From Cyanophora paradoxa CCMP329 (Eukaryota; Plantae; Glaucophyta), in contig QPMI01000584.1 of assembly GCA_004431415.1 (NCBI GenBank), forward strand, positions 1 through 64,000: a stretch of 64,000 bases of DNA, in the 5' to 3' direction. Made by a program: the position numbers and the translations under genes. Under the pieces are notes generated by a model, which did no database searches, was not told where the DNA came from, and saw nothing but the letters and a program-made list of their open reading frames with translations. This document shows positions 1 to 48,514 of this stretch, piece by piece; positions within the stretch are counted from its first letter, which is position 1, and each line of letters starts with the position of its first letter.

Positions 1-2964
1 CCTACATACTCCAGGATTGCAGAACCTGGCATCTCATTTTGTATTTTACCTGGGGTCATTCTGGAATCACCTCCAAGGTCTAATGCATAGGATATATTCT
101 CTATATCTGTTTCAAGGGTCTTAGATTCGATATATAGACAAAAGGAATCAGTATCATGGAATAGGTACTTTGGCTTTGGACCATTGGACCTCACAGTATC
201 ATAGAAGAACTTGTAGTTTGCGTTTGGCAGCATCCAAAACATAAGCCCCAATTGCAACTGGCTTATCTAGCTTCACATGTTTGTGTAAAACTCAAAGGCA
301 ACTGCTCTTTCACTTATGGGACTTGTTGATTTCACTAAAAGGGAGGCAGCATATTTATAAATAGTTTCTCAGTGTTGGCAATCTTAACTACAGATCTACC
401 TCTACATGATTCAATGCATTTTCCCATAGATGAATTATTCATGAGCTTATAGAAATCAGCCTCGAAATTTATTCACTGCTTTTCCTTCTCATATTCAGTG
501 TTCAGCTCAATGTAGGGTTTCATTACAGGAGCCACAGTAAATGATAGGACCCTGTGAACCTTTTTTAGTTTCACACCTTTGTCAGAATATACTGTAGAAG
601 AGGCTCAGAAATCACATAGTTGGTCACAGAACCAAAGGTTGCAGTTAGCTTAGGGGTCTTATCAAGCTCTTCTCCTGAGAGATCCAATAGACTTTTTGAT
701 ATTGTGATAATTCTGCATATTCTACTATTTTCTTGTTAATAATTAGGGGAAATCACTGTGATCTAGAAACAGCCTAATTGGGTAATCAAGATCAACTTCT
801 AGGAAACTGGATCTGTTATCTTGTGGGTTGAATTCGGTCTCCCATCTAAAATCACCAACTGGAATTGGCTGACTCAAACAGTAGCCATACAAGTTGTTAG
901 CATCAAACAGCATTAATGGGAGTTCTCACCATCAGCCTCAGCATACCTACAGGGCATTGTTGCAAAGCCACCCCTGATTCCCCTCTCAACAAATTCGTAT
1001 TGCTCTACATCACTTATTAGCTCTATTTTTGCCTTGGTGGTCCTAACATAGCATCCCAAGATAACCCAGGGCAGATACATAATGAACTGGTCAAGTCCAT
1101 ATACTGAGTGTGAAAGCATTCTAAAAGCCTGGAATTTGTTCATTAACTCATCTACATCAGCAGCTCCAAAATCCATGAAGTTACTTGCATCAATGAACTT
1201 GTAAAGACCCCATTGCAATGAAAGGTATTGATCAAAGTTTTCGAAAGGATTTCGATTCGCTTTTTATCACCCATGCCTGCTATTTTTCTGAAAATGAATG
1301 TCCCACAGTCATCCATTTGGTCAACAACAACTGCAACTTTGGTTTGCTTTGAGATTCTCCTATGGAGATTGCAGTTTCTGCATGCAGGAGCAATATAATG
1401 ACCTGTGTGGTGATCATGATCCCTGCATTTGAAGTTCTCTTGGTGAACCTCTCACTGCAAAGGTAACAGTGTTTGTAGCCTTGTAAATTGCTTTCTGCTC
1501 ATCTGTGAGTTCATTCATGGGAATATTGGTAACAGGAAGTCAATTAGCTCTCTTGCTTTGGATTCCAAGCATTCAAACAGACCTCCCATTGGATCCTGCC
1601 CTCAAATCGAAACTCCTGAACATCTGCCCCAGTGACTATTCTTATGTTGACTGCTGAGACTTCCTCTTGATTTGATGCATCAATGGGGATGCTTCTATGT
1701 TCAATCTTGCAGTATACCACAACAGGAAGCCCACAGTTTTCCTGAGGTTTTTCAGTCCAAACTCTATGGTGGTCTCAGGTTAGGGTGATTCCCTTTGAGA
1801 GTCTCCAATCAATGCATCTGTTTGAGTCCACATGAGCAGTGAGTTTAGCCTCAGACCTGAATCGAGATAAGCATGTATCACAGTAGTGTAACTTTTGATC
1901 CTTGGTTTTATCAAGGGCAACTCTGAGAAGTCTTGAAAGGGACATGATTGTAATATAGTGACCATTCCCTTCATCATCATGAATGAGCATGAGATTAATC
2001 TTTTGCTTTCTGCCTGGGTTGCTGGATTGATGTAGGGGATATATAACATCTCGATCCATTCCAAATATGTTTATGCTGATGCCTGCATTTTGAGATTCGA
2101 ATTTATCAATGATTTCAGCATCACAGGAACAGGGAATGGGATGTTATCGAAATTGAGAGCCAAAGGATTGTATGTGGTTGGTGAGTATTTCCATTTGCGA
2201 TATTGTGTAAGCTCACTTCTCTTGTGGGAATTCACATCTTTCCTATGGATCCATGCCAAAATGCATTTTCAAAGCAAGAATCATCAATATTTCGAATATT
2301 CACTGTGGCTCTCTTGGCTGCAATTGATTCAGGTGTTTTAACATAGCAGCCACCAGTTGGGCATAACTCATAATAGCAACTCTGAGCATTTCGATTCTCT
2401 CCAATCGATAGCTATCAACAACATTCATCTGTTCCTGACACATTTGGGCTGCTTTATTCAGCTCAGTTCGAATATTTCTCGATTTGGTTAATACAAAATA
2501 ATCACTGTAAATGTATTTCGATATCCAAACCTGTGGATTGCTGACTTTAACGAACTTGCAGATAAAAGATAAGCGAACTTTGATTGCCCTGAATTGATCT
2601 AGACTGTCTCTTAAACGTTTTGGAGAGAGGTTGCAATTCTATCTAAATATTCAATCACATCTACAACAACTTCCCTTCTGGCTCTGTATGTGAGCCAGCG
2701 ATATAATTCATTCATAGCTGTTCCATCTTCCGCCTCTGGTTCTATTTGCCTCAGGCGATCCAGTTCATCAAGAGTTTCAACTTTATCATAGAGGTTATTG
2801 GCTTTTCTGGTTAATTTTGCTAAAGTGGGTCTGCCCCTTGAAATAAATCCGATTTCCCGGTCATATTCAGCCTCTGTGATTTCATGGGCTGCATACAGTG
2901 TTCCCAGTAATCCCATGAGTTCCCATTTCTTCTCTCTAATGAGTCTGTTGCTAATTCGGGGCAT
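1..2964 (-). pseudogene. Protein-primed family B DNA polymerase, frameshifted, continues past base 1
   Basis: Fragments 2611-2964, 2071-2259, 1775-2059 and 913-1218 align in order with the intact PolB at 41416-44679 (MPRISNRLIREKK vs MPRQTNRLIKEKK; GHYITIMSLSRLL; QWGLYKFIDASNFMDF; IRGGFATMP). LFHDTDSF is readable on the minus strand near 141-165. Confidence 0.9.
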
Positions 2965-2998
2965 AGTTCCTAACTTGTTCCTACTCTCAACAAATATT

Positions 2999-3316
2999 TT
3001 ATTCTGAGATGTTCTGAACGCGATTTTCTAGTTTCTTTCGCAATTTGGCTTTGTAATGCATTGGATTATGTGATCCATTTTTTGTCCATACATTTGGGTT
3101 TTTGTGATACTGTTTAAGGGCGTTAATTAAGTTTTTCTCTGTTTGTAATCGCAAACAATCAATATCTTTGGAGGAAAGCTGTGACATTTGATACCCATCA
3201 CATTTGCTTTGGCATTTGATGATTTTGTCTATAAGAGCTGGTATATCCTTCAAATCATCTTTATCGAAATGTTTGTTCTCAATCATTGAACTCATTCTGG
3301 TAGTCCAGCTTGTCAT
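2999..3316 (-). CDS. Hypothetical protein
   Basis: 105-aa ORF between the helicase cassette and polB, with an AT-rich upstream region. No recognised motif. Confidence 0.5.
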   Translation of the reverse strand: MTSWTTRMSSMIENKHFDKDDLKDIPALIDKIIKCQSKCDGYQMSQLSSKDIDCLRLQTEKNLINALKQYHKNPNVWTKNGSHNPMHYKAKLRKKLENRVQNISE

Positions 3317-3370
3317 TGTTGTACTACTACTTATTATTATAAGAATATTATAATGTATTTGTTTTAAATC

Positions 3371-3512
3371 GTCAGGCAGACTTCGATTGTCAGGCAGCTG
3401 ATTCAGCCAACATTAAGAAACTCTGTCACTTTTTCAAGTCAGTGTTTGAGAAAACTAATGAAACCATAAACTTATAAAAGTTAAATAGAAAGGTGCCTGA
3501 CAGTGCCTGACA
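3371..3512. repeat. Iteron-like inverted-repeat cassette (TGTCAGGCA family), putative origin
   Basis: GTCAGGCA at 3371 and TGTCAGGCA at 3388, an AT-rich spacer, then TGCCTGACA at 3494 and 3504. Ends 5 bp from the helicase stop codon at 3518. Confidence 0.8.
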
Positions 3513-3517
3513 GCTTT

Positions 3518-5894
3518 TTAACAATCATCATCATCCTCATCAATAAACTCTGTTGTATTTTCCGAAATCAGTTTTACACACTTGTAACCTCTATCATATA
3601 CTTTTGAAGTTGCCTTTCTCACTGCATATTTGTCATATTTGGCTCCCAACATCTCCATTACTCTCTTAACCCTGCTTGCAGACATATTGAGTTTCAAAGC
3701 TTTTAACTCCTCATCTACAGTTTTGCTTGACAGAGAATCAGAAGGATTTCCTGTAAATTCAAATCTGCTTTTTAGTATTTGAATTTCATCACCTGCATCC
3801 TCTCTGAAAGCAGCAGTATCATTTGCCACCTTGCCACATATCTGGACTTTGTGGGATTTGTATGCTTGGAATACTGACCATTGGAAGCATGAATGATTTC
3901 AGGCGTTTAAGCAGATCACTTTTAATATCTTCAGAAGCCAATCTATAGCATGGGAGCTTCATTTCATCCATTGTTTTCTGATCCACAAACTTGTGGGGAT
4001 GCTGAAGAAAACAAGAGTCTCAAGTGTACAGATGGAGAAACAGGGGCATATCATTCATGATCATCCAGAGCCTACTTTGGAGTCTTATATTTTGCTCATT
4101 TCCATATAGGATTCGAATGCATTGAATATCACCACCAGATTCTTCTTTTTAATCATATTGCCATTTATCTTGATACTTGGATCGAAACATCAAACTTCAT
4201 CTCTTGGGTAAATGTTAAACGCGAAATTCACATGGTTTCATCCATTTAGCTTTTAGCCTCATCAGAATCTGAATGTTTGTCCATCAGGAAAGATTCTCCT
4301 CCAATAGTGTTACATAACCACTCCCCAAGTGTTCTCATTAAGATTGACATAAACTCCTTTTCCACAATTGCGCTCACCTGATGATAGTCCCATTGTTTAT
4401 CCTCTACTTTGCCTGCCATTGCTCTTGCTGTAAATTCGAGAGCAGTATTAATTGCATCTGCTCCAAACACAGGTTCAAGTATGTTTCGTAGAGGATTTTA
4501 TATGCTCTTCTGACGGCTTGACTACATATCCTCGATCATCTACAAGTAAATCTCTTTCAATTCTAGTAGTGGAATAGACGTTTTGACACTCTGCCCAAGG
4601 AGTAAGCTTTTTGGTTTCGAAATCATACACACCATTTTTATAACACAATTTTCCAAGAGATGAAGACCAAAGGACATTATTCACAAACTCACTATCATTT
4701 GGCAGAAGAGCTTTTGTAGCTTTGATTACTTTTGAGCGCCTGTTATATTTGCGGTATACTCTGTTAGACCTGTCAGACCCTCATGATAGATCTTTGCTTG
4801 AAGGCACTTCTTTAAAAGCATATTTTCCACTTGATTGGTTTCCTCAGTCCAAAGATTCTCATCTGTTTTGACAAATATACGACCATTGGATTGCTTGACA
4901 TCATTTTTGATATCTTCAGCAAACAGAGTAGCAGCCTCATAGTCTGTAGAGCAAATTCGAAAATCGTTTGCTTTCAGAGAAGCTTCATCTGGAAGCTCGA
5001 AACCCTGATCCATAGGCTTAACAACTAAGCCTAATTTGTATCCTGTGGACTGCTGGATATAGTTCTCTGCATCTTTGAGAATATCAGTAAGTTTTTCCAG
5101 TGATAGATTAGGTGACTTTTCAATCATGCAGCCATCAAATACAAGAACACCAACAGTGAGTTTGATGGAGGTTAAATACTCACACAGAGCCATAAGAGCA
5201 ATATTCTCGATCTGACAAAGAACCATGTTAACAGTGGAACCTAACACATTGTAGCCCTTCTTTCGCTTGCAAATAGCAAGGAAGTTGGTATTTTCTTTTA
5301 ATTCAGCAATAGAAGCATGAATACCACCAATTTCTTGTTTAACCTTTTTAAAAGCCATTTCTTTGTGTAAATCGGGACACTCAATGCCTCCTCCTCCGTT
5401 AATCACAGATAAGAAGGCGCACTTAATTTCTTCACGAGTAAGATCACACTTTTTGCTTAAATCACTAACGATTTTATCTCGATTGGCAACAAACTCAGCA
5501 AGGAAATCACAGTTTATGTCATTTTTTTGGCAATACTGGACGAGTATCGATGGATGAGCATTTTTCATATCAATATCATAATACAAATCCCTTGCTAAGG
5601 TGTGTCTAAATTCCCGAGGCATACTCTGCATGCTTGCTTTTTTGTTTTTGATGTGTGAGAGAGTAGTGAAATATCTCCAGTATGGTGTTTGCATTGATAG
5701 TATTTAACTTGAATGGTTCCATTTGAATGCAAGTCTTTCATGTATTTCTTCAGGAGAGTCAAAGTAGCAGTAGAATCCACATCAGGTCTATAACTCAAAC
5801 CCTCGAAATTATCGATTAAATACTTAAGAGTAGGGCGAGATACTTTTTCAACAAGAGTGATATCGAGATTGTTGGGTTTCTTTGAGCTAAACAT
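3518..5894 (-). pseudogene. TVpol (PolA-like primase-polymerase) fused to a D5-like SF3 helicase, frameshifted
   Basis: Motifs YYDIDMKNAHP, KCAFLSVINGG and VLVFDGCMI in 4726-5694. D5_N-like KNGVYDFET in 4475-4684. Walker A GERNCGKG readable in an alternate frame near 4355-4385. Winged-helix-like C-terminus in 3518-3829. Confidence 0.75.
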
Positions 5895-6031
5895 CTTTCT
5901 TGAACGTTTCTATATTAAGCAGATAAAATATTTTATCTGAAAATCCTTGTCATTTTTTGTTGCCAAACCTTTAAGTCCTTTTGGGTTGGCTTCCAGTTAT
6001 ATCGATAATTGGTAGTAGTGTATCAGTTTTT

Positions 6032-6298
6032 TTATGAATTCCCCACACAAAAATAATGAACCGGCATTTCAGTATTCCGAGGACGACCTACAGGTCGACC
6101 TTCTGGGAAATTTGGGTCAAATGTGAGTTGCTTTTTATAGTAGTAATAGGCTAATGCCCTTTTGCGGCGAATTTCACGATATTCCTCATCCTCTTCATAT
6201 CTTTTATTATAATAAATTTGGTTTGAGATCTTTTTCTTCATTGCAGAAGAGATCTTTTCAAAACTTTTGCTCTCAGTTACAGTTTGATCAGTATCCAT
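6032..6298 (-). CDS. Small basic AT-hook-like protein (paralog 1)
   Basis: RYEEDEEYREIRRKRALAYYY...GRPVGRPR; homologous to 7063-7308 and 48661-48954. Confidence 0.7.
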   Translation of the reverse strand: MDTDQTVTESKSFEKISSAMKKKISNQIYYNKRYEEDEEYREIRRKRALAYYYYKKQLTFDPNFPEGRPVGRPRNTEMPVHYFCVGNS

Positions 6299-6429
6299 TT
6301 GGGTATCTCTTAACTATAACCGAGAAAAATGTTTTGTCAGATTTCAATATGCTTGATTTCCTTAAGTAGTTTATGCGTTGTCATTTTTTGGTAACAGAGA
6401 TAATTCCTATACTGTTACCATAAATGGTT

Positions 6430-6613
6430 TGTCAGGCACTTTAAAATAGTTGTCAGGCACTAATATAGTATGTCAGGCATTGTCAGGCACCTTTTTAGAA
6501 AACTTTTCTATAATGAAAATTTCATTGTTGATCCAAACAATGACATTGAAGATTTTCAATAGTGTTTTAAAATCAATGTGTTTCCTGCCTGACAAACGTT
6601 TTACTGCCTGACA
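6430..6613. repeat. Iteron-like cassette (TGTCAGGCA family), second copy
   Basis: TGTCAGGCA at 6430, 6451, 6471 and 6481; AT-rich spacer; TGCCTGACA at 6586 and 6605. Near-identical in its first ~110 bp to the copy at 23419-23601. Confidence 0.85.
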
Positions 6614-6971
6614 ACCTTTCATCAACAAAAAATGATTGTGTAAACTGACTTAAAGATTTATCAGATATATTAATAAGAAAACAACAATGGCTGCTCAAAT
6701 CGCCAAAGGAATTCTTGCCGAAAAGATTGAGAAGATACCCTCTGGAAAGATCATAAAGGATTAGTTGATGCTATTGTAGAGAGTGGTCTCCACTCAACAG
6801 GAATAAACATTAATCAGGCTGATAATAAGCGAAACAAAGAATTTCGACAGAAAGTAGAAAGAGATGTATTGGGCATGATAATTGACCCAAACTACCTTTC
6901 CACAATTAACAAAAAAAATCATTCAAACACTGCCACAAGAAAACGACTCTTTAAGAAATTAATGAGTCGTT

Positions 6972-7082
6972 CTACTTCCTCTTAAAAAAAAGAGCCAATT
7001 CCTTTGTATATATTTTTATAGCTGCCTCAGTAGCATACTGAGACCGCTTTTTCTCAATTTTCTTATAGACCTGGGGGTCCAT
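6972..7082 (-). CDS. Conserved 36-aa micro-protein
   Basis: MDPQVYKKIEKKRSQYATEAAIK... aligns with the unlisted ORF 49005-49145 of element B (PDPDLYAILYRKRAQYALEVAIK). Confidence 0.6.
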   Translation of the reverse strand: MDPQVYKKIEKKRSQYATEAAIKIYTKELALFFKRK

Positions 7083-7308
7083 TGCTACTTTCAGTTGGCA
7101 AATAATATTTAATCGGTCTTCCTCTGGGTCTCTGCTCCTCTTTTTGGGCTTTTCTGCGATAATAGGATGCCAGGGCTTGCTGCTTCTTATACTCTCTATA
7201 TTCTGGGTCCTCTCTATATCGTTTCTGCATTGCGAGTATGTGTCTAATAGAACCCTCAGTAACAGGTTCATCACTGGTAAACTCGATTAAACTAATAGTA
7301 TCCTCCAT
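7063..7308 (-). CDS. Small basic AT-hook-like protein (paralog 2)
   Basis: RYREDPEYREYKKQQALASYYRRKA...PRGRP; closely matches 48661-48954. Confidence 0.75.
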   Translation of the reverse strand: MEDTISLIEFTSDEPVTEGSIRHILAMQKRYREDPEYREYKKQQALASYYRRKAQKEEQRPRGRPIKYYLPTESSNGPPGL

Positions 7309-7563
7309 TTATATTCCAGAGAAAACGTTTTCTGCTGGCAGAGAACTTCTCCTTGGATACTCCTGTTGCTCATATGTATACTCTGTGGGGTCTGCTGGCA
7401 TTGACTCCACAGAAACTGTAGACCTCCTTCTCTCTCTTGCTTCTGAGGCATTATCCTCATTATCTGACATCTCAAACTCCACTGTTGTCTCACAACATCC
7501 ACTGTGGCAATTGCTCACCACATGCAGACTGAACATCTCGAAGAACTTTCGTATTATGTCCAT
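7309..7563 (-). CDS. Small protein with HxxSxCxSGCC motif
   Basis: EMFSLHVVSNCHSGCCETTVEFEMSD matches EMFHLHFISHCKSGCCDTTVEFDISD in element B. Start placed at the aligned Met. Confidence 0.7.
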   Translation of the reverse strand: MDIIRKFFEMFSLHVVSNCHSGCCETTVEFEMSDNEDNASEARERRRSTVSVESMPADPTEYTYEQQEYPRRSSLPAENVFSGI

Positions 7564-7585
7564 ATCTCTAATAAAACAGAGATAA

Positions 7586-8320
7586 TTAAAGCCAAACTCG
7601 TCTTTTATATACTGTTGGGGCAACTCCCTTTTCTACTTCAGCTTTGGTGGCACCAGGTTCAATGGATCCCTTTTGGGTTTTTGTTTTCATTTCATCTACT
7701 GCCTGCTCATCGATTTGGTTCTCTTTCTTAGCAATAAACTGTTTATCTGGGACACCAGTAATACCCATTTTATAAACTTCCTTTCGAAGCATCTCCTTTA
7801 GCTTGGCTCTCTCTTTCTTCTCAGTAACATACTGCTCCAAGGCACTTGATTTGGCTTCCAGATCTTTGAGTTTAGCAGTCATCTCATCCCATTGAGCTTT
7901 GGGGATTCGATGAACATTCTGAGTGGGAGCAGTCTTGTATGTGACTTCACCAGCCATAGACTGAATAACCTTGTCTGATTCCTTACTTAGACCTTCACCT
8001 TTGCGAGCCAATGACAGATCTTGCAAGCCTAAACCTTTATCATCAGCAGCACCAATAATTCGCCTGGCACCCTCAGCAACAGACTTCATCTTTGAGGCTT
8101 CTGGTGAGATGTTGAGTTGGTCAGCAGTTGAACTTTGTGGGGCTTTGTCATCGACTGATTCCTCATAGGCAGCATTTAGGGGGTCTTCTTGGGGTTGTGA
8201 GGGTTTGATTTCGTTCATACCATTGAATTTCATTGGTTCAGTGTTAATAGATCCATTGTTTCCACCACCTGAATAGCCAACAGCCCCAGCTGGGATCCCT
8301 ATCTTTCGTTTGGGAGGCAT
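7586..8320 (-). CDS. Coiled-coil protein, possibly virion core
   Basis: 244 aa with an MPPK start and helical C-half; syntenic and weakly similar to 49721-50392. Confidence 0.7.
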   Translation of the reverse strand: MPPKRKIGIPAGAVGYSGGGNNGSINTEPMKFNGMNEIKPSQPQEDPLNAAYEESVDDKAPQSSTADQLNISPEASKMKSVAEGARRIIGAADDKGLGLQDLSLARKGEGLSKESDKVIQSMAGEVTYKTAPTQNVHRIPKAQWDEMTAKLKDLEAKSSALEQYVTEKKERAKLKEMLRKEVYKMGITGVPDKQFIAKKENQIDEQAVDEMKTKTQKGSIEPGATKAEVEKGVAPTVYKRRVWL

Positions 8321-8348
8321 TGTATCTTTATTAGAATGAGAGATAATT

Positions 8349-9130
8349 TTATAAACCGCGTTTATATCGCATCAATTTATTGCTATGGACTTGGCTTTTC
8401 ACTTCTTTGGGGGCTTCCTCTTTCTCTGGTGGTTTCAGTTCATCTTCTTTCTTTTTTGGCTTTCTGTGGAAGCGAGGAAATGGGAAGTCTTTGACAAGCT
8501 CAGCTTTATCTACAAAGTATTTAACTGAGTAGCCAGCAGAGGACCAAACGATATACTGATAGGAGTGAACATACTCTTCAAACATCTTGTAGAAATCCTC
8601 TTTATTTCGCATTATATTGTATTCTTCCTCTATGGCTTCAAGTTCTTTGCGATTAGCAGCACTTAGGAAAACAGCATAATCAGAATTAACTCGAATAGTG
8701 GAAGAGACTTTTCTGAGTTTCTGTGTAATGCAGATAATGGATATTTTCGAATGGCGACCTCTGGAATACAAGGATCCGATTATTTTATCCCTTGTGAGAT
8801 CGACTATCTCATTATCAATTAAATCATCTAAAACAACACACATGTGGTTCACAGGTTCACCTTTTTCGATTTTCTCCTGCCTTTCATCCAAAAGCTTTGA
8901 AATGTAACCAGCATCCCATTTACCAAGTTCTACTGTTGCAACCTCTCTCCAGAATGATTAAAGCTGGTCCCACTCACAACTAGGACAACATCAATAACTT
9001 TGGCATCATGTAATTGCTTTAACCAATACTTTACACATTCGCTTTTTCCCGTACAACTTTTGCCTATAAAAATGGCTCTGAAAACACCTTTTATCATTTC
9101 AGAAACATTAAACTCTTCTAAATCTTGCAT
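8349..9130 (-). CDS. A32-like (FtsK-HerA) packaging ATPase, frameshifted near 8900-8950
   Basis: Walker A GKSCTGKS (8930-9130); Walker B VVLDD and the SRGRH...ICITQ motif (8349-8891). Homolog of 50416-51339. Confidence 0.85.
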
Positions 9131-9189
9131 TGTTGTAGATCTTCCTAAATAAAGACAGATAAAAATAATGCAGGGAGACTGAATATGGT

Positions 9190-10557
9190 CTATAAATTGA
9201 TTCTACGAACACCTGAACCGTCTATAATGAGGAAACTATGCATTAAAGCGCGAACTTGAACATTGATTGTCTTATCTGTGGGCATGTAGAGTGTGAGGAA
9301 TGAAGATGAGGAATTTGTCAGGTCAACAAATCCACTTTGAGCAATATTTCGAATCGCCTTCTCTCCATCAATGCAGAAACTTAAACCTGAAAGGACATAT
9401 TTATCTGCAACCTTATCCATGTTAGAGCATTTGAATGCATCAGCAATTAGCTCAGCACCTTTGAGTAGGGAAATTGGCTCAGTGGCATAAAGTCGTTGTC
9501 CATTAATTTCAACAGTGAAAGTAATATCTTTGGAGTTGGCATAGGTCTTAAGAACACTGTGGGAGCCATTGGATTTGTCAACAGTCTCATAATCACGAAC
9601 TGAAACAAGCAGAGCATAGACAAGACCTGAGATTTGAGAGAGGTTAATTCGATTGGGCTGGGCATTGCCCTTGGCAGGGAAAGCAATGGCATCTACAAAT
9701 CCAATATCAAGGGAGGGAATAGCCATGCCAGTAGTCTTTACTTTTTCAATTACAGTAGCGAAAAGCTCATCAGAAACATTAATAGCATGCATGTAAAGGC
9801 GAGGAGAAGTAATTGAAATAGCAGGGGTTGTTGCACCAAGACTGAAAGTGGTGATGTTTTGACCAACATGGGCAAGTGTAGCATTAGCAGTATCACCAAG
9901 ACCATCATCTTCTGTCTTATCAGCAGCTGTCCCACCAACAACAGGGAGAGAGCGACCACCATAGGAAGTTTCAACATAACCCTTTCCAGCATCCTTAAAC
10001 CAAACAGTAACAACCATTTCACCAGATAAAGCACCAAGGGGAAGGTAGTGATTTAGCCAAGGCACTGGGATTTCAACGAAAAATGAGCCACCAAGTCGGT
10101 TGGTTCCATGAGCAGGGATTCCATGAACCATGCCCATTGAGCGTTTCTTTTTAGCTAGTTGATCCTCCGAATAATAGACCAGGGGGAAATGAGCAAGGAA
10201 ATCAGAAGGAATGTGGTAGGTGTAAGATCCATAGGTAATTTCAAGTCGCTGAACTAAAGCACCAACTGGGCGAGTGTATCCATTGCGAACTAGATCTTCA
10301 CCAGCAAAAGTGATTTCTGGTAGGTCGAAAGCAAGTTCGAGTTTTCCACAGAAATTGTAGCGAGGTAGCTTGAAGGAAATGCGATTTCCAACATTATTCT
10401 CAAAAGTATTGCTGGGATTCACAACAACTAGAACTGGCTTAGACTTGGATTCGAGTCCAAGCATAAGGGAGTTATCCAGGAAAAAGGCTTTCGCCTCTTC
10501 TGGGGTTGTTAGGGCTTCTTTCAGCGAAAGTCTTTGAAGAGTGGAAGTGATATCCAT
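9190..10557 (-). CDS. Major capsid protein (putative double jelly-roll)
   Basis: About 455 aa, beta-rich, located between the ATPase and pentons. Shares FxLPRYN, LSQISGLVYAL and GxVDLTxSxSSFL with 51392-52840. Confidence 0.75.
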   Translation of the reverse strand: MDITSTLQRLSLKEALTTPEEAKAFFLDNSLMLGLESKSKPVLVVVNPSNTFENNVGNRISFKLPRYNFCGKLELAFDLPEITFAGEDLVRNGYTRPVGALVQRLEITYGSYTYHIPSDFLAHFPLVYYSEDQLAKKKRSMGMVHGIPAHGTNRLGGSFFVEIPVPWLNHYLPLGALSGEMVVTVWFKDAGKGYVETSYGGRSLPVVGGTAADKTEDDGLGDTANATLAHVGQNITTFSLGATTPAISITSPRLYMHAINVSDELFATVIEKVKTTGMAIPSLDIGFVDAIAFPAKGNAQPNRINLSQISGLVYALLVSVRDYETVDKSNGSHSVLKTYANSKDITFTVEINGQRLYATEPISLLKGAELIADAFKCSNMDKVADKYVLSGLSFCIDGEKAIRNIAQSGFVDLTNSSSSFLTLYMPTDKTINVQVRALMHSFLIIDGSGVRRINL

Positions 10558-10610
10558 GATTATCTCTTTTATTATACTGCAACATAAAAAATCTACCAAT
10601 GATCCTTAAT

Positions 10611-22236: not shown

Positions 22237-22509
22237 ATGGATAGTAAAACAAAAAAGTTTATTGATGCTGCTATGACAGTTCATGGTAAAGATAAATTCG
22301 ATTACAGTGAGACACATTACATCAAAGCTCAAGAGAAAGTATCTGTGAGATGTTTGCAGTGTAACAAGGTGATCCTTACATATCCCTTTAATCATGTGAA
22401 GGGATCAGGTTGCAGGGACTGTAACAAAAGAAAGAGTCAAGCACACAGGAAAAGAGCTACTTCATCAATCAGAGTAGAGTATAGGGATATTTGCATTAGG
22501 TTTGACTAG
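22237..22509 (+). CDS. Zinc-ribbon protein (DUF723-like repeat)
   Basis: FIDAAMTVHGKDKFDYS..Y...KVSVRC..C...H..GSGC..C pattern. Confidence 0.7.
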   Translation: MDSKTKKFIDAAMTVHGKDKFDYSETHYIKAQEKVSVRCLQCNKVILTYPFNHVKGSGCRDCNKRKSQAHRKRATSSIRVEYRDICIRFD

Positions 22510-22532
22510 TTAATTTTTCTAAGGTATTCTTA

Positions 22533-22931
22533 ATGGAGACTAAATACAGAGGCTTTCATGTTATGCTTGATTACAAGGCTAAATCAGCTATAGCAACAGG
22601 TTATGAGCATGTTAGCTTCCTAGGTAATTGGATTATGGGAACCCTTGAACAAGCAGTATTGAGACAAGGTATTAGGATTGTTCATAAGCATTGTGAGATA
22701 TTTGATGGCAAACTATCACCTCCTGGTTTTGCTTTGGTTCTGCTATTAGATGAAAGCCATTGTACAGCTCATTGTTATTCCAATGAAGGCATGTTAGCAA
22801 TTGATATATTCAGTTGTGGTAAAGAAGCTCAGCATAAAACACAATCAGTAGCAGATGAGATCGATAAAACAATGAATTTCTTAACATTTGAGAAGACTGA
22901 GAGACATAAACATGATAGATTCCCGTTTTGA
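22533..22931 (+). CDS. speD: S-adenosylmethionine decarboxylase proenzyme family (prokaryotic-type, pyruvoyl)
   Basis: 132 aa with LLDESHCTAHCY (ESH self-cleavage site) and AIDIFSCG. Confidence 0.85.
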   Translation: METKYRGFHVMLDYKAKSAIATGYEHVSFLGNWIMGTLEQAVLRQGIRIVHKHCEIFDGKLSPPGFALVLLLDESHCTAHCYSNEGMLAIDIFSCGKEAQHKTQSVADEIDKTMNFLTFEKTERHKHDRFPF

Positions 22932-23207
22932 TGGGTTTCTATAATGATGATCAGGGTAATTTACCTTTTTTATTACAATGGCAATCGTTAAAAAAGGATA
23001 TAATATATCCTTTCCTACAATAGCTTTCTACAATGATTTTCTTTCTACAGTAGCTTTTGTTACAATAGAATTCTACTGTATGATGTAGCCGAAATATGAA
23101 TGCACCCTACATTAAGCAATGTCAAGTATTTCGAATACTATTCGATTTCCTTACAATAACACTCAGCATCTGCCCTAGATTCCCCCTATTACCCTATTAT
23201 TTAAGTG

Positions 23208-23765
23208 GACTCAAGGTTGACTCATATTAATCGTAAAAGTAGTAAAAGTATATGGATTTTGTTACGAATTCAATGGGAGGGTTGACTAAGTGGGTTGAGT
23301 TGACTCAAATTTCACAGGAAATAACAATGAATCAGAGTATAAATGCATTTTTTGAATCAACTACACCAACTAACACTGAGAAAGTAGAAGATATCATATA
23401 GTATTACCATATATGGTTTGTCAGGCACTATAATATAGTTGTCAGGCACTTATATAGTATGTCAGGCATTGTCAGGCACCTTTTTAGAAAACTTTTCTAT
23501 AATTCAAATTTCATTGTTGATCCAAACAATGACTTAGCCAAAATAAAATACTTTATGAAAATCGATAGATTTAATGCCTGACAAATAAATGCTGCCTGAA
23601 AGATTTAACACCAACTAACACTGAGATTTTCACAATATATGAGGTCCTTACTGAATATGGTTTGTGTGACAGGTGTGACAGGTTTATCCCGTGGATTTTA
23701 AAAATCAATTTCTCACTAGGACTTTCCTTGGGATTGACCTGTCACACCTGTCACACCTGTCACAC
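23208..23765. repeat. Tandem series of different iteron cassettes separated by a 19-bp direct repeat
   Basis: Degenerate GTTGACTCA cassette (~23208-23360); ACACCAACTAACACTGAGA (23363-23381); TGTCAGGCA cassette (23419-23601); the same 19-mer (23608-23626); TGTGACAGG x2 / CCTGTCACA x3 cassette (23664-23764). Confidence 0.8.
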
Positions 23766-24007
23766 CCAAAATCCTAAGGGTCCCCCTTAGACTCAACAAA
23801 ACAATGATAAAATCATATAAGTTTCATGTATAATTACGATTGGATTCAATAAGAGATCGATTTGTTAATATAAACAAATGAATCATTTATGGATCTTAAT
23901 CGAGTTTAGCGATATATTTCCGATTAAATGAATTAAATTTAATTAAATTTAATCGAGAAAGTACATGAATATAATATCGATTAAATCAATTAACTTTTAG
24001 ACCAATC

Positions 24008-24291
24008 ACACATAGTAAAATGCGGAGTTTTAACCAGAGGCAAGATCTAATTGAGATTCAGTTATATTATTCGGAAATATATACAGATTATCGATTAACT
24101 CAGTAAGACTAATCGGAAAATAAGAGAAATTTACGATAAAATATCGAAAAGAATACAAAATAATCGAAATAAATGAATATTCGATAAGATATACACAGAT
24201 TATCGATTGATTGAAATAGAATATACGAGATATATCAACAAAATCAATTAAGATTAAGCCGAGGGTTAAAACTCCGCATTTTACTATGTGT
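24008..24291. repeat. Terminal 28-bp inverted repeat of element A
   Basis: ACACATAGTAAAATGCGGAGTTTTAACC (24008-24035) and its exact reverse complement (24264-24291). Confidence 0.95.
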
Positions 24292-24299
24292 CAGGTCGG

Positions 24300-30084: not shown

Positions 30085-30115
<31 letters not shown>

Positions 30116-36003: not shown

Positions 36004-36088
36004 CCGCGAAGTACGTATTCTTAGAATTCGAAGTGTCAAGAAATTCGAAAAAATCCTAAATCCATCTAATAGCTAAAGGAGGCAGCGC

Positions 36089-37229: not shown

Positions 37230-38690
37230 ACACATATAAAAACAAATATTATTATCCCTCGCGTTCCGCTCAGGATAATAATATTTGTTTTTATATGTGT
37301 GTTACTATAAGTTATATAAAGATATTAGCATTTTTATCATAGTGTATATCGATATGTGATATGTATTCTATCGGTAGTTCGTAAATGAATCAATAAAAAT
37401 AATATAAGTATCGTGGAATCTTTGTAAAATATGTATATATAATATGTAATCGCGATATAGCCGATATGTGTTTACGATGCGCGATGTGTATCTAAAACAA
37501 CTACAATGTGCTGCTTGGGACGCGCCTCATATAGTCATGTGTATCACCTACGTAGCTTCGATAGGGTGGGGCGGGTGGGGTGAGGTGGGGCATTTTTTGA
37601 ATTCCCTAAAATGTTTCACTCCCAAAAATTCTTGGTCAAAAAAGACCCCACCCAACCCCACTTACCCCACCCTGTATTATTCTCTTTATCTATGATTGAT
37701 TTCAATGTAATTTAAATATAAATATGTATGATTGAGTATGTTAAATTAATACTGGGTGGGGTGTGAGGGTGGGGTGTGAGTGGTATCGGTATGGTAGTCC
37801 AATCTAAGATGGCACACATAAAATCATGATGTGTTATTTTTACTTCCGGTTTGATACTTATCGGACTTCGATAACTTCGATAGGGTGGGGCGGGTGGGGT
37901 GAGGTGGGGCATTTTTTTGAATTCCCTAAAATAATTCCCCTCAAAAATTCTTGGTCAAAAAAGACCCCACCCAACCCACTTACCCACCCTGTATCTTTTA
38001 TTATATTTATGATTGATTTCAATGTAATTAATGTATAAAGTATAGAGATTATGTATGTTAAATTAATACCGGGTGGGGTGTGAGGGTGGGGTGTGAAAGT
38101 GGTATCAGCCAACCATTTAATAATTACGATATTGAACCGACGTGATACCGACGAGATATGATATATTCAGATCGTATTAGAACGGCGCGATCACTAAGAA
38201 AAACAAGTATCATGTGCTGTATATTTCGCGATCCCTGAATCGCGAATCGATAGGGTGGGGTGAGAAAGTGGGGCACCACCCTCACTGTATACACTGTGAT
38301 ATGATCGCAATCCCGATGTAGCCTACTATGATATCGTGCGGACTTCGATAGGGTGGGGTAAGTGGGGTGAGGTGGGGCATTTTTTTGAATCCCTTAAATT
38401 TTTGGGGGTCAAATATTTTTGGGCAAAAAAGACCCCACCCAACCCCACCCTCCCACCCTGTATTACTTATCGATACACCTCACTTATTTCAATGTATAAA
38501 CTCTATTAAATTAGATAGTAAATATGTATAGAAATAACGAGATTGTAGTATAGGGTGGGGTGTAGGGTGGGGGCAAAATGCAAACTGAATCAGTGCGATA
38601 TAATTTAGTGAACACAAAGTGGATATGAAGTGGATACTAAGTGGATACGAAGGGGATAAGTGCGCCCCGCCCACTATGCAAGATACATGC
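37230..38690 (+). repeat. Left TIR of element B (~1.46 kb), with terminal hairpin and three GGTGGGG cassettes
   Basis: 37554-38690 is the reverse complement of 62862-64000. Perfect 28-bp stem at 37230-37257 / 37273-37300. Cassettes at ~37556-37790, ~37875-38108 and ~38343-38574. Confidence 0.92.
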
Positions 38691-41415: not shown

Positions 41416-44400
41416 CTAACAGCCGAATGGAAGGCTATGTATGCCGTCGCCTGATATGCAGCGCTTGCTATCGAATTGGGTCAGCGCTATCCGCTTGCTC
41501 TCCAAATCATATAAGTGGTGGCATCGCCGTTGCTTGTTTACTACTGTTACTGTTTTTGTGATCCCGTCAAATAGGCAGCGCTTAAAGTCGTCGAAATGCA
41601 CCTCTTTCGAGGCTGTCCCGCTCATTTTTACCTTGTCGTAGCTCTCGGTGCGGAAAGCATATAGCTTCGGTCGCAGCCCCACATACTCCACTATCTTGAC
41701 GTCGGGCATCTCATTTTTATATTTACCGGGAACCATCCGGTTCTCGGGGCTATAAGGGCAGTCTAAATAAGGGCTGATCGCTCGCATGCCCGCTTCCAGA
41801 TCCGCGCTCTCTATATACAGACAGAACGAGTCGGTATCGTGGAACAGCAGCTGAGCTTGCGAGAAAGTCGGTCGGATCACGTCGTAAAAGAAGCTATAAT
41901 TATGGAGCTTCGCGGCATCCAGCACATAAGCGCCAATAGCCACCGGTTTATCGAGTTTTACATGTTTACTATACATTTCGAATGCGACCGCAGTCTCGTT
42001 TAATACATTCGTCGCTTTTACCAGCGGGCTCGCGGCGTATTTCTTAAACAGCTTCGTGCTGTTCGCGATCTTTACCACGGAGCGCCCTCGACACGATTCC
42101 AGGCATTTACCGTAAATAGCATTATTCATTAATTTAAAGAAGTCGCTCTCGAATTTATTCCGGGCTTCCTTTCGCAGTTTCGTGTTCAGATCTATATAGG
42201 GCTTCATAAATGCAGCGGTTGCAAACGAGAGCACCCGGTGGATCTTAGTAACTACGATCCCCTTTTTTACCATATAGAGCAGCATCGGCTGAGAGACCAC
42301 GTAATTATATTTCGGAGTAAATGAGGCGATCAGCTTCGGATCTTTACTTAGCTTCTCGCCGCTAATCTCCAAAAGCCCACGCTGATATGCGCTCAGCATG
42401 TCCGCAGTAATTACCTCTTTACTCACGATCAGCGGGAAATCGCGATGGTCGCCCTTTAAATAGTCCGGATACGCAAGGTCGACCTCTATAAATGCACTCC
42501 GCCCTACAACCTCGGTAAAAGCTGTGCTTGTGACGTCCCAGCGATAGTCCCCGACCGGTAAAGGCTGACTGAGCCCATAGCCATATAGATTATTCGCATC
42601 CAATAGGACTATATGTTTATCCTCGCTATTAGCCTCGGCATATCGTGTGGGCATGGTCGCAAAGCCGCCCCTAATTGCCCGCTCAATAAATTCGTATTGA
42701 TCCGCATCACTGATCTGTTCTATCGCGACCCTCGTATGCTTTAACATCGCGTCCCACGATAGTCCCGGTGCGCTCACATAATGCGTGGGATCCAGTCCGT
42801 ATTGCTCATGGGCGAGCATGCTGAATTTACCGAATTTTACCATGAGATCATTAACATCGGACGCCTGAAAATCCATGAAATTCGAGGCGTCTATAAACTT
42901 GTAAAGTCCCCACTGTAAAGATAGATACTCGTCGAAATTCTTACTTAGGATCTCGACCCGCAGCTTATCGTCTTGCTGTGCGATTTTCCGGAATATAGCA
43001 TGCCCGCACTCGTCCATCCGATCAATAACCACGGCTACTTTCGTTTGCTTTGAGATCCTCCTATGTAAATTGCACTTTCGGCAAGCTTTCCCTATATAAT
43101 CGCCGCTTTGGTGACAGTGATCGCGGACAGGGAAGTTTTCGTGGGTAAACCGCTGATTGCATATGTAGCAGTGCTTGGTGATTTTATAGGCTTGCTTTTG
43201 CGCCTCTGTGAGCGGAATCATAGGTGTGTTGGTAAATAGGGTATTAAGCATCTCGCGGCACAGATCCCCTAACGTGGTAAACATCTGACCCAGCGGATCC
43301 ACCCCCTCGAATTCGTGATTTTCAACATGCGAGCCCATAACAACATTAAGTGCCACCGACTTTACCTCTCGCTTGCTTCGGTTTGGTTCATTAGGAACCG
43401 GCACCGACTCCATCTCTACTTTGCAGTAACAGACAGTGGGCAGCCACACCATTTTCCTTAGGTGTTGCAGTCCGAAAGTAATAAAGCTTCCGGGTTCCGG
43501 GCATTTACCTTTACTCATTCTCCAATCGATACAGCGATTAGATTCGGTGTGTTTATCGAGTTTGTCCTGTGATCTGAATCGGGACAAACAGGTTTCGCAG
43601 TAGAAAATGCGCCCGTCGTTTGCTTTATCAAAGGTGGTCTTTAAGAGGCGGCTCAGTGACATAATCGTAATATAGTGACCCTGTCCGTTTGCGTCCTCGA
43701 TCAGCAGCAGGTTTACCTTTGATTTACGACGCGGATTACTTGACATGTGCAGTGGATAAAAGGTTTGGGTCGCATTATCGGCGCCATATATATTAATTGA
43801 CAGCTCGGGATTATTGTCCTCGAAACGATCTATTAATGCAGCATCGCAAGCCACCGGGAAATTAATGCCTGAGAAGTCGAGTTCAGTCATCCACCGCCTA
43901 TATTGGAACGGATCATTACGTTTGTGTCTGTTTATGTCGTTTCTGTGCAGCCATGCGAGGATAGCGTAATTAAAACAGTCGTGACCATCGATATTCTTAA
44001 TATTTACTGTGGCTCGCTTTAATCCAATCCATTCGGGGGTCTCAATGTAGCAACCGCCCATCGGCGCATATGACAAAACGGCGACATGTAGCTTATCTAA
44101 TTTACTGAGCCGGTAGCTGTCGACCTGTATCATCTGTTCATTCATTTGCTGAGCTACACCCACTAACTCAGTGAGAATATTGCGCGACCTTGTGATTACG
44201 AAATAATCGCTGTAAATGTGTTTGGTGATAAAAACGTTAGGATCACTCACTTTTACGTATCGGCAGATGAAAGTAAGGCGCACCTTAATAGCTTTAAGCT
44301 CGTCCAGCCTCTCTTTCAGCCGCCCAGGCAGGTTTGCAGCGATGGTAGTGAGAAATTCCACCGGATCTAAGATTATCTGTTCATCCGCCTTATAGCTATA

Positions 44401-44679
44401 CCAGGCGTATGCTTTATTCATTGCGAAACCGTCTTCCTCATCGGGTTCTATGACGGCTAAGCGCCGCCCTTCGGTATAGAAGCGCTCCACATTTTCCAGG
44501 CGATTGTAGAGCTCGTCGGCAATATTCGCAAGGTTAGCTAAGCGGGGTTTTCGATCTAAGATCGCCGCCCTACGATCATATTCAGCTTCGGTGATCTCCC
44601 CAGTGACTAAAAGACTACCTAACAAGCCTAATATTTCGTCCTTTTTCTCTTTTATAAGGCGATTAGTTTGGCGGGGCAT
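41416..44679 (-). CDS. Protein-primed family B DNA polymerase with C2H2 finger and endonuclease VII-like insertion
   Basis: LDANNLYG, KLMNNAIYGK, HDTDS and RPKLY motifs; CYIC...RDHCHQSG...ACRKCN insertion. Confidence 0.95.
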   Translation of the reverse strand: MPRQTNRLIKEKKDEILGLLGSLLVTGEITEAEYDRRAAILDRKPRLANLANIADELYNRLENVERFYTEGRRLAVIEPDEEDGFAMNKAYAWYSYKADEQIILDPVEFLTTIAANLPGRLKERLDELKAIKVRLTFICRYVKVSDPNVFITKHIYSDYFVITRSRNILTELVGVAQQMNEQMIQVDSYRLSKLDKLHVAVLSYAPMGGCYIETPEWIGLKRATVNIKNIDGHDCFNYAILAWLHRNDINRHKRNDPFQYRRWMTELDFSGINFPVACDAALIDRFEDNNPELSINIYGADNATQTFYPLHMSSNPRRKSKVNLLLIEDANGQGHYITIMSLSRLLKTTFDKANDGRIFYCETCLSRFRSQDKLDKHTESNRCIDWRMSKGKCPEPGSFITFGLQHLRKMVWLPTVCYCKVEMESVPVPNEPNRSKREVKSVALNVVMGSHVENHEFEGVDPLGQMFTTLGDLCREMLNTLFTNTPMIPLTEAQKQAYKITKHCYICNQRFTHENFPVRDHCHQSGDYIGKACRKCNLHRRISKQTKVAVVIDRMDECGHAIFRKIAQQDDKLRVEILSKNFDEYLSLQWGLYKFIDASNFMDFQASDVNDLMVKFGKFSMLAHEQYGLDPTHYVSAPGLSWDAMLKHTRVAIEQISDADQYEFIERAIRGGFATMPTRYAEANSEDKHIVLLDANNLYGYGLSQPLPVGDYRWDVTSTAFTEVVGRSAFIEVDLAYPDYLKGDHRDFPLIVSKEVITADMLSAYQRGLLEISGEKLSKDPKLIASFTPKYNYVVSQPMLLYMVKKGIVVTKIHRVLSFATAAFMKPYIDLNTKLRKEARNKFESDFFKLMNNAIYGKCLESCRGRSVVKIANSTKLFKKYAASPLVKATNVLNETAVAFEMYSKHVKLDKPVAIGAYVLDAAKLHNYSFFYDVIRPTFSQAQLLFHDTDSFCLYIESADLEAGMRAISPYLDCPYSPENRMVPGKYKNEMPDVKIVEYVGLRPKLYAFRTESYDKVKMSGTASKEVHFDDFKRCLFDGITKTVTVVNKQRRCHHLYDLESKRIALTQFDSKRCISGDGIHSLPFGC

Positions 44680-45705: not shown

Positions 45706-45920
45706 CGATAGGGTGGGGAGGGTGGGGTGAGGTGGGGCATTTTTTGAGTTCCAATAAAAAATTCTCCCACCCAAACATTTTGGGCAAAAAAGACCCCACC
45801 CAACCCCACCCTCCCACCCTGTATTAACAACCATGATTTACACTGAAATTCAATGTGTTTTAAGTTATAAAAATAAGATATATCAATGTTAGAATGAAAC
45901 CAGGTGGGTGTAGGGTGGGG
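45706..45920. repeat. Internal copy of the TIR GGTGGGG iteron cassette, abutting the helicase stop codon
   Basis: CGATAGGGTGGGG..GGGTGGGGTGAGGTGGGGCATTTTT...CAAAAAAGACCCCACCCAACCCCAC...GGGTGGGG, directly followed by TCA (stop on minus strand) at 45921. Confidence 0.88.
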
Positions 45921-48514
45921 TCAGGCTTCCACATCTGAATCCTCGAATTTGGTGCCCCTTTTCTTTGGTTGCGGCTGAGGAGAATCATCTTCTTTAATCG
46001 AATCATCATCGATTAGCTTCAACTTTCGGAATTCAGCCATCATCTCATTCCACAGGAAGTGATAGTTAGATTTTCCATTGGTCGTTTTCACTTGAATATA
46101 TGTAGTCGTGCGCATCTCAGTATAGAACCGCTTGCTATTATAATCGTTTTTATATTTGTTTTCAGAGATGAAGTCTTTGAACAGCTCCCATGTCGATGCA
46201 AGACCGCCCAGCTTGGTTTTCAGCTCTGTAACCCGCTCACTATCGACAAGCCACTTCGCAAACATAAGAATAATCGGTGCAGCCGCTTGCTGAACTAAGT
46301 AGTATCGGTTTGTAAGCGGTCTGTCTTGACTCCAATTGACTTTCTCGCAATTTACTTTCGTCCTGAGATACTGAACGATATTTCGAATATTTCTCATATC
46401 ATTCAGCCACTCAACAAGCGGGGCGAAATAATCCTTATTACAGCGCTGTTTGTCACTCACCTCAATGACCACAAAGCGACGATCATCAGCCTCGATCTTG
46501 ACAGGGACAGTATTGTTGCTTGTGAAAACGATTCGCGCGAAATTCTTCTTATCATACGAGTCTATTCCTTTGTGCTCAATTACAATCTTCGGGGCTGTGA
46601 CTATATCTTTGAGAAGGTCGCTATGTTCAAAGGTATCCTTTCCAGACGCTTCATTTACCACAATCATAATCTTATCCTCCCGGTTGTGAGCAAATCGCCC
46701 GAATAGATCATCCTTTGGCTTGGCTGTCGAGTATGCCAATGCATCACCGAGGATCTTCTTCTCAAAGGTATCAATGAGCATATTCTTTCCAGCGCCTTGG
46801 CGACCTAGGAAGATGAGGGACACGTTATTTAGTTCCCCCGGCTTTTGCATCATGTGGGCAAACCACTTTTTAAGATAATCGAATGTCTTATCATCTTCGC
46901 CTGACATTAAATATAGATGTGTCAGAAAAGGCTGAATCATCTCTTCTGTCACATCCTCGGGGGCGGCTCCTCGAATTCTTCATGATCAATCTTGAATCCA
47001 GGGTAGAGATTAAACACAGACTTGCATTTCGCGCTCAGCTTTGCAGGAGGCGGCAGGAAATCCATATAAGTGGATCGTGTCGCCCTTGGGTCAGTAATCC
47101 ATTCAGGTAGCGTTTTTACCCACTTTTCGGTTTGGTTCTCAGTCCCTCATTGAGAATCACCTTGTGAAACAGATGGGGAAAATGTTTGGTCGCCAATTTC
47201 GTAATATCTTTCGGTCGCCAGGATAATAGCTGTTCATCCCAATACATGACAGTGCCGATGCTCTCGATGTGATGCAGCCTCGCATTTAAATATCGCAGAT
47301 GGACTTCAAAGCTATCGACCATAGGTGGAATGGGGGCAGTCTTGTAGTCAATATCGTCGGAATCCTCAGGCTGAAACGAATATTTCTTGGGGAATAGCTT
47401 ATTATAACTGTCGCTGTTATCCTTTTTCAGCCAGTAAACAATCGAACCGAATGTGACTCGCTTCCCTTCCACCATTTTCTTGCCTTTGCAAAGGCTCATG
47501 AACTTCTCATGACAGTCATCATATTCATATTTTTCGCTCTACTTGTTGCTTGCGAGGGATATTGTTGTCTTCGCAAGTATTGATTATAGCAATACCTACG
47601 TCGATCCATGTCTTATATTCATTAGCTCGCTCGCCACTGAGGCTCATAATGACTTCTTGCAACAGTTCAAACGAAACCTTATTATCTTTGAGATCCTCCA
47701 ACACCTCCTCCTTCTTCTTCACAGGTTCTTTACAGGGCTTGTCCTTAACAGACTTGGGCGCCACCGTTTGCTTAGGTTCCTCAGGCTTTGTAGCTTCCTT
47801 TGGTTTATCGACCGCAAAGGCTGACATGGTGTCTACTTCCACCCACTTAGTGGGGCGATCGAAACATTGCACCAGGAAAAAACCATCGTGCATGCCTTCT
47901 TTCTCGCAATCAATAAACTTAGTGAACACCACATTCTTATCGACATCGTGCTTTGATTTGCTTTGAGCGTCCAAAGCTTCGCCTTTGCAGCAACGGAGGC
48001 AGATCAGGTTTTGAGTTGTTCCATAAACGCCACTATCGAATTCGACATTTTTGATGAGACCCATCGCTTTAAAAAGCTTTGGAATGTCTTCGTGGCGGCA
48101 GACCAGATCGGTAAATACGAAATGCCCGGAAATCTTGAACTTAGTGACATTCTCTTTGATTAAATGAACCCGGCGATGGCGAACAGCAACCGCAATTGTA
48201 GATCCCGACAGGGTTTGCAATTTCTTGCGCATTTCCCTGATGATCTCTTCGGCTTCCTTATAGTTGTCGGCTACATCAGGTTTCAGATCAACGAACTTGT
48301 CCAGATCCAGATAAACACGAGTCACTTGATCAGGTTGTATGCATTCCGCCCATGTAGGATAGGTCATATTGTCCCGTTTCTTTGAGTTATTGATGCGCTC
48401 AATAATTTCATCATCGGTTAACTCAACCAAATTAGACGTATTGCGAGAACCAGTCAGACATTTCAGAAAGGTGCCCTTGACATTAGAGAATGCGAATTTC
48501 GTGATAGCGTCCAT
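45921..48514 (-). pseudogene. AEP primase-polymerase + PriCT-2 + SF3 (NrS-1-like) helicase, frameshifted into three ORFs
   Basis: RVYLDLD, SGHFVF and FDSGVY (AEP); YKTWIDVGIAI and VTFGSIVYWLKKDN (PriCT-2); GRQGAGKN, VNEA, FTSNN and DDRRF (SF3). Confidence 0.85.

Follow-up and report, generated by a model that had tools for sequence, protein, structure and literature searches.

How do syntenic viral elements come to carry unrelated primase-helicases at the same locus, and does each of these enzymes bring a replication origin of its own? The question is raised by 64 000 nt of the Cyanophora paradoxa CCMP329 assembly (contig QPMI01000584.1, positions 1–64 000), hereafter the window, in which a composition scan separated two AT-rich elements, A and B, by a GC-rich eukaryotic spacer (Table 1). 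The two are syntenic for pPolB, the primase-helicase, two small homologous ORFs, an A32 ATPase, putative capsid genes and fibres, with protein identities of mostly 41–65% in pPolB segments and 33% in the capsid. Pfam searches yielded a Pox_A32 match in both elements and, in B, PF03175 (pPolB) and a weak rve match; pPolB of A was detected by tblastn, and the expected position of an integrase in A lies beyond the window. The TIRs of B were identified, and the outer ends where a target-site duplication would sit are likewise beyond the window. The putative major capsid protein (51392–52840 in B, 9190–10557 in A) gave no Pfam match, its double jelly-roll role being assigned from position and size. 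Since this protein has 2 relatives among 1.84 billion representatives and none in IMG/VR, no outside sister element was found. Judged from this nearly orphan protein, A and B probably represent an undescribed group of Polinton-like viruses (PLVs).

Several further features of the elements were recorded. Both visible ends open with ACACATA (37230–37301 in B, 24008–24291 in A) and contain palindromes; that of B can form a hairpin with a 28-bp stem (z −12.9). Terminal palindromes are reported for Halocafeteria elements in the available part of a preprint (10.64898/2026.07.28.741278). Fibre-gene segments at 16236–17292 (A) and 59242–60252 (B) are 80% identical at the DNA level, far above the remainder of A and B, so their exchange between the elements is likely recent. 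In pPolB of B, weak endonuclease VII-like and C2H2 matches fall in a region common to pPolB of A (1–2964), and what we take to be the proofreading motifs of this polymerase appear degenerate in both elements. The cargo of A comprises a patatin phospholipase with an F5/8 domain (12572–14128), a 1767-aa fibre with an S74 chaperone (14798–20101) and an AdoMet decarboxylase (22533–22931), that of B a weak C1q domain (61617–62528). The spacer (24292–37229) has 54–71% GC and long G runs, with no Pfam match for the 16 longest frames tried. A promoter-like motif of 27 bp is shared at 5908–5934, 41018–41044, 48523–48549, 48964–48990 and 52848–52874; it sits upstream of both unrelated helicase genes as well as of other genes, so that the same likely promoter would serve the swapped modules.

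Table 1. Coordinates of the elements, genes and repeat cassettes in the window
Feature	Position	Strand	Description
Element A, Polinton-like virus	1..24291	.	Left end beyond window; pPolB, primase-helicase, A32 ATPase, capsid genes, fibre; GC step at 24291
Terminal inverted arms of A	24008..24291	.	41 bp arms, 85%, 202 bp apart
Module of A, apparently exchangeable	2987..6993	.	Other host copies diverge at both borders
105-aa ORF inside A module	2999..3316	-	No family
A primase-helicase	3518..5894	-	TVpol (PolA-like) + D5_N + SF3 helicase + Pox_D5-like C-terminal domain; in pieces
C-terminal domain of A (unbroken in window)	3521..3898		
A cassette 1	3371..3512	.	2+2 facing TGTCAGGCA repeats, 97-bp spacer, 5 bp beyond helicase stop
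A cassette 2	6430..6613	.	4+2 repeats, 96-bp spacer, inverted relative to cassette 1, upstream of helicase gene
A terminal cassette	23419..23601	.	4+2 repeats, 96-bp spacer, 85% identical to cassette 2
Orphan terminal cassette	23664..23765	.	2+3 facing TGTGACAGG repeats; no cognate helicase in window
Element B	~37230 to beyond 64000		TIRs on both sides (inverted repeats 37553–38690 and 62862–64000), the right one leaving the window
Left TIR of B	37230..38690	.	Terminal palindrome 37230–37301 + three cassette units (~37557, 37876, 38344)
Right TIR of B	62862..64000	.	Three cassette units; runs beyond window
pPolB of B	41416..44679	-	PF03175
B cassette	45706..45920	.	3+3 facing GGGTGGGG repeats, 56-bp spacer, AT-rich stretch, then 2 repeats abutting stop
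B primase-helicase	45921..48514	-	AEP (C962R-like) + PriCT-2 + DUF5906 SF3 helicase + predicted winged-helix end; in pieces
C-terminal domain of B (unbroken in window)	~45924..46270		

An SF3 helicase fused to or paired with a primase is present in both elements. The initial annotation had described the primases at this shared locus as unrelated, and our searches agree. The primase of A (49 homologues; a weak DNA polymerase I match, E 0.59) carries motifs that we take to be of the PolA/TVpol type, and that of B is AEP_C962R-like (atlas score 0.97) with a weak PriCT_2 match (E 0.004). The helicase halves differ as well, B being DUF5906/NrS-1-like and A having D5_N and a Pox_D5-like end, and tblastn with the SF3 domain of B found no match in element A. 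For the primase of B we found no longer homologue and no solved structure related by sequence; a locus search with its helicase returned 10 loci, none with a B-like AEP upon inspection of six new N-termini. Indels break both helicase genes in the window, and the contigs of four independent short-read runs are gapped over the same stretches, so that the frame breaks of both genes are probably assembly errors. The pieces of the A gene align in order to intact relatives, and the fusion of primase and helicase in B was deduced from the short-read gaps and from homologues.

The structural model of the B helicase (pLDDT 88.6) ends in three helices and a hairpin. Its best match was NrS-1 (Z 24.9, rmsd 3.4, 290 aligned residues), and its residues 9–303 superimpose on SaPI5 PriRep 463–749 through the SaPI5 C-terminal region (Z 19.4, rmsd 3.5, 266 aligned); a C-terminal winged-helix domain is therefore predicted for B from the model. 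The C-terminal piece of A resembles Pox_D5-bearing atlas clusters (0.94; Pox_D5 in 30–48% of members), and its end shows a weak profile match to the family of B. Modelled alone, this piece reached a pLDDT of 43.6; in its alignment Pox_D5 was found in 1 of 22 members, and comparison of the alignment with the PDB gave no meaningful match.

A cassette of converging short repeats had been noted at each helicase stop codon, recurring in the terminal region of the same element, and the coordinates for both elements were borne out. In A, (T)GTCAGGCA at 3371 and 3388 on the plus strand opposes TGCCTGACA at 3494 and 3504 on the minus strand, and the final base of the cassette, 3512, lies 5 bp from the stop codon at 3518–3520. 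The terminal cassette of A contains four plus-strand repeats (23419–23470) opposed by one at 23575 and a one-mismatch copy at 23593. Two further cassettes had been overlooked, namely an inverted copy upstream of the helicase gene (6430–6613) and a different one at 23664–23765. The three related cassettes of A align across their spacers too and keep 96–97 bp between the inner facing repeats. Further one-way repeat arrays, suspected by eye at the end of A, remained below the threshold of the scan.

In B, GGTGGGG blocks directly adjoin the helicase stop at 45921 (0 bp). The facing pair of blocks lies 100–211 bp from the stop, and the block abutting it is a third one, pointing outward. Three homologous cassette units of ~230 bp per TIR give six terminal copies; all seven units align over ~230 bp, the match ending at the helicase stop codon, and the inner facing repeats are 55–56 bp apart. 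A one-way array of four AAGTGGA words was seen at the inner edge of the TIR of B (38617–38657), with no opposing partner found. The spacers are AT-rich in both elements, as had been claimed: 69–77% AT versus 61% for element A, and 68–73% versus 56% for element B. None of 300 dinucleotide shuffles reached the cassette score of A or B. The observation that each cassette is exclusive to its own element also held: in the opposite element the motifs occur as single chance words only (50683, 16079, 21744), never as a cassette.

The cassette copies within an element are homologous duplicates that, judged from these alignments, descend from one another. In 5 of 5 comparisons, identity is higher in the repeat columns than in the spacer columns (28/32 versus 60/108, 31/32 versus 59/108, 53/61 versus 93/148, 53/58 versus 95/148 and 55/61 versus 93/147). 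Because recurrence was the criterion for choosing the motifs, this test is partly circular; the fixed spacing is free of this circularity. The copies look selected. The side of the cassette that is turned towards the stop codon beside the gene is turned inward in the terminal copies, at the right end of A as well as at the two ends of B.

For the second terminal cassette of A, the tandem TGTGACAGG repeat had 37 matches in IMG/VR. Seven of these form opposed cassettes, and in every case a large ORF terminates there with its 3′ end. Scans of six of the ORFs gave matches to phage primase/helicase families (DnaB-like in some cases); L179, the remaining one, is nearly a duplicate of L162. From this location at the 3′ ends of primase/helicase ORFs, the orphan cassette appears to belong to the same class, its helicase being one that the window does not contain.

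We then looked at the same position in relatives. Among 80 IMG/VR loci with a relative of the TVpol protein, 70 offered a complete helicase ORF and sufficient downstream DNA; the 62 non-redundant ones span virophages and several PLV capsid types. With a strict detector, opposed repeats were found ≤420 bp from the stop in 22 of 62 helicases versus 3 of 531 other ORF ends (p 1e-20), and at starts in 4 of 60 cases. A relaxed detector gave 27 of 62 versus 11 of 531. An independent metagenome set of 80 loci, 35 of which were complete and new, yielded cassettes at 7 of 35 helicase stops versus 4 of 113. A cassette at the helicase stop is common but not universal: none was detected in 64 of the 97 related helicases, where AT-rich words would escape detection. 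Cassette-less relatives include those closest to B (L046, L011, L030) and most of those close to A (L021, L026, L027, L256, L058), and in L196, the closest relative of A, the cassette is built from another word, ACACCTT. When the repeat of A itself was used as query, 52 matches in IMG/VR contained no opposed cassette. Intact helicases accompanied by a cassette are present in, for example, L085 and L025.

One locus (L032) was excluded before the duplication and co-variation tests, as its repeat lies 258+ bp downstream and apparently in coding sequence, which left 33 cassette-bearing loci. A second cassette copy occurs in 8 of these 33 versus 2 of 64 others; control ORF ends gave 9 of 191, and four of these nine are the second copies in question. 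For half of the duplicated cassettes (4/8), a contig end, possibly an assembly break, is no more than 371 bp away. The repeats of a locus recur within it in 4 of 33 cases, with 0.06 expected from the repeats of other loci. Individual loci deviate from the simple layout: in L049 the first cassette is followed, at +645 from the stop, by another one with an unlike word, L071 has an upstream cassette (−2919) whose word resembles that of its sister L053, and the cassette of L076 is ~600 bp past the stop (+596). No pPolB was found in the fetched DNA of the 97 relatives, so that the dual system of pPolB and cassette is seen in this window only and the cassette is possibly the sole origin in the relatives. 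Conversely, eight pPolB relatives showed no helicase match and no clear cassette.

If the repeats are read by the helicase, their sequence would be expected to co-vary with it, as the initial annotation had proposed. A first test with pairwise scores at 27 loci gave r 0.33 for the primase domain (the strongest), 0.17 for the core and 0.14 for the C-terminal domain, and no C-terminal signal given the primase (r 0.04, p 0.27). The second test, a partial Mantel analysis (n = 33) of tree distances (helicase tree by FastTree) and profile similarity, with and without composition correction, gave r 0.12–0.17 (p 0.004–0.006) for the helicase core and r 0.10–0.13 (p 0.015–0.039) for the C-terminal domain, each given the primase; this positive result comes from the second method only, after the null first test, and core and C-terminal domain are inseparable in it. 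One supported primase clade divides between two helicase types, and the repeats of its five DUF5906 members resemble those of their helicase sisters (z 1.01) more than those of their primase sisters (0.15), although the clade counts as one event and the groups were picked after the trees were seen. L081 and L050, for instance, fall into the same primase clade but have unlike helicases. Capsid type had no effect on repeat similarity (3.54 versus 3.47). The repeat sequence tracks the helicase gene, probably its helicase half, weakly, and not the capsid. The proposed co-variation is thus modest (partial r 0.10–0.17), and a signal specific to the C-terminal domain did not appear in the first test.

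Short reads provide a view of other copies in the same host. In all four runs, the contigs covering 2600–7400 break off with loose ends at 2985/2987 and 6993/6995, and depth inside the module of A (2987–6993) is ~10–20 times below that of the flanks, so that other copies of the A family seem to carry other DNA in this interval. This suggests that the module of A is exchanged among copies in one host. Gene and origin had been predicted to be exchanged as one unit; the reads agree with an exchange, but the unit is larger, spanning ~2987–6993. Element B is present in 20 DNA sequencing runs, all of one organism; its helicase region is about half as deep as its pPolB. Loose ends at 46827–46865, near the start of the B SF3 domain, together with a weak joint 38572/45988 connecting a TIR unit to the helicase 3′ end, hint at variant B modules; the joint was set aside as evidence because one side consists of 29 letters. 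The terminal cassette of A exceeds the module in depth by a factor of 3–10, whereas two ends would account for a factor of 2, depth being a weak measure of copy number. The excess hints either that pairing is loose or that diverged alleles are missing from the comparison. With the orphan cassette at the end of A and this excess depth, the pairing of one helicase to one terminal cassette is not strict.

The arrangement resembles a known bacterial system. According to the available text of PMC9371898, opposed repeats directly downstream of the gene are bound by winged helices of the SaPI initiator, and the fused primase begins synthesis once the AT-rich centre has melted. SaPI5 PriRep5 combines a fused primase and SF3 helicase with a C-terminal winged helix, and the short repeats directly downstream are opposed, with at least two per side of the AT-rich centre (PMC9371898, available part); at least two opposed repeats on each side of an AT-rich centre, right after the gene, are likewise found in A and B. 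Unlike in SaPIs, the carrier here is a eukaryotic Polinton-like virus with a TVpol or C962R-like AEP primase and repeats of 7–9 bp, extra copies lie at the ends and upstream, pPolB is encoded alongside, and binding is proposed by analogy. We consider it likely that an initiator-helicase origin module of the SaPI/P4 type has been added to pPolB-bearing PLVs, with its origins duplicated at the ends.

In such a system each cassette would be a replication origin read by the primase-helicase of its own element. By analogy to SaPI Rep, the C-terminal winged helix would bind the facing repeats, the AT-rich spacer would be opened by two hexamers, and priming would fall to the fused TVpol or AEP domain. 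In A and B this helicase-origin system would have been added to an element with pPolB and TIRs, where the terminal copies could bring the helicase to the ends before pPolB or serve as starting points of synthesis themselves. Gene and origin would likely change together as one module, extra origin copies would be kept near the ends, and the ends may accumulate origins of successive or co-resident helicases, of which the orphan TGTGACAGG cassette may be an example. For the helicase-specific origin system suggested in the initial annotation, the SaPI-like layout, the enrichment at helicase stops and the homologous terminal copies speak in favour, but strict one-to-one pairing does not hold.

Other functions of the cassettes were weighed against this origin reading. 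The cassettes could be the ends of a self-mobile replicase module, that is, recombination or transposition sites, with the terminal copies as target or leftover sites. Inverted cassettes indeed bracket the gene of A, as in L042 (an inverted upstream copy, 94.7% identical), and repeats bracketing acquired replicases are described in the available text of a 2026 preprint (10.64898/2026.10.13.758929). However, the swap borders lie ~380 bp outside the two inverted cassettes on both sides, so that the exchange unit of A is not cut at the repeats. B has no cassette copy upstream of its helicase gene, Pfam gave no recombinase match in the module of A, and 25 of 33 relatives have a single cassette within the fetched DNA; a self-mobile module is thus unlikely. 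A role for the cassettes as RNA or single-strand hairpins, in 3′-end processing of the giant-virus type, or as binding sites for autoregulation, would fit their position directly after the stop, in B between converging genes, and the strands fold well (z −3.8 and −5.4). Yet cassettes are nearly absent from other gene ends (3/531), the arms of A differ in repeat spacing (1 versus ~9 bp), and terminal copies lie away from gene ends. Linker variants of the L1 and L3 units of B are uncompensated between the arms, which disfavours a hairpin despite the good folding, and we regard this role as very unlikely.

It could also be that only the helicase-adjacent cassette is an origin and that the terminal copies are neutral relics or serve helicases in trans, the coupling of gene and end being loose. 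The orphan second cassette and the excess depth at the end of A point in this direction, but in the terminal copies repeats and spacing were retained while the spacers drifted to 54–64% identity, six copies are retained in the TIRs of B, and neither element holds the cassette of the other. This leaves loose coupling a quite unlikely explanation. Under the preferred reading, that of an added helicase-origin module, a more far-reaching proposal is possible, which we put forward as tentative and rather doubtful: each interchangeable primase-helicase module would arrive with an iteron word of its own and deposit it in the terminal repeats. Origins for several helicases (own, former or acting in trans) would then pile up at the ends, so that a pPolB virus would start at helicase-selected sites and families in one host would compete or cooperate through origin specificity.

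Parts of this picture have precedents. In Vibrio PLEs, a RepA_N initiator varies together with its cognate ori, and the pair is exchanged between backbones as a single module; this initiator is no helicase, its specificity is proven experimentally, and terminal copies are absent from the description in the part available (PMC8263062). A model of end-module or replicon replacement in PLVs proposes inverted repeats as origins for PLV primase-helicases and a mobile helicase with affinity for TIRs, and reports for Gezel-14T a repeat of >300 bp common to the TIR and a site downstream of the end module; in its accessible text it defines no cassette of facing short repeats and includes no co-variation test (PMC11296320). 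There the helicase invades the TIR, whereas here the helicase is internal and the origin is duplicated at the ends. The available part of a preprint on Polisuviricotina describes swaps of PolA-SF3 and AEP-SF3 in syntenic genomes, second replicases beside pPolB and bracketing repeats; 'iteron' is absent from its main text, and the repeats are taken as signs of mobility and not as helicase-specific origins (10.64898/2026.10.13.758929). NrS-1 polymerase is alike in the fold of the B helicase and C-terminal domain, and ASFV C962R represents the family of the B primase. Whether the NrS-1 C-terminal domain binds an origin has, according to the accessible text of PMC9371898, not been addressed. The main text of a paper on cryptophyte PLVs, as far as available, contains neither 'iteron' nor 'origin of replication' (PMC12220804). 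Literature searches, in which most subscription journals were missing, found no iteron cassettes in PLVs or virophages, the matches being prokaryotic by title. Replicase swapping and TIR origins have already appeared in print as proposals.

What this locus adds are unrelated helicases with mutually exclusive repeat words, end copies that look selected, a putative orphan origin and read evidence of exchange. The cassettes are exact, element-specific candidate origins, and the two helicase ends offer a matched pair of small domains to go with them. The cassettes also suggest a cis-acting reason why replicases may be swapped so freely, namely that the origin travels with the gene. Origin copies in the TIRs of pPolB elements would then represent a concrete intermediate of the proposed replicon replacement.
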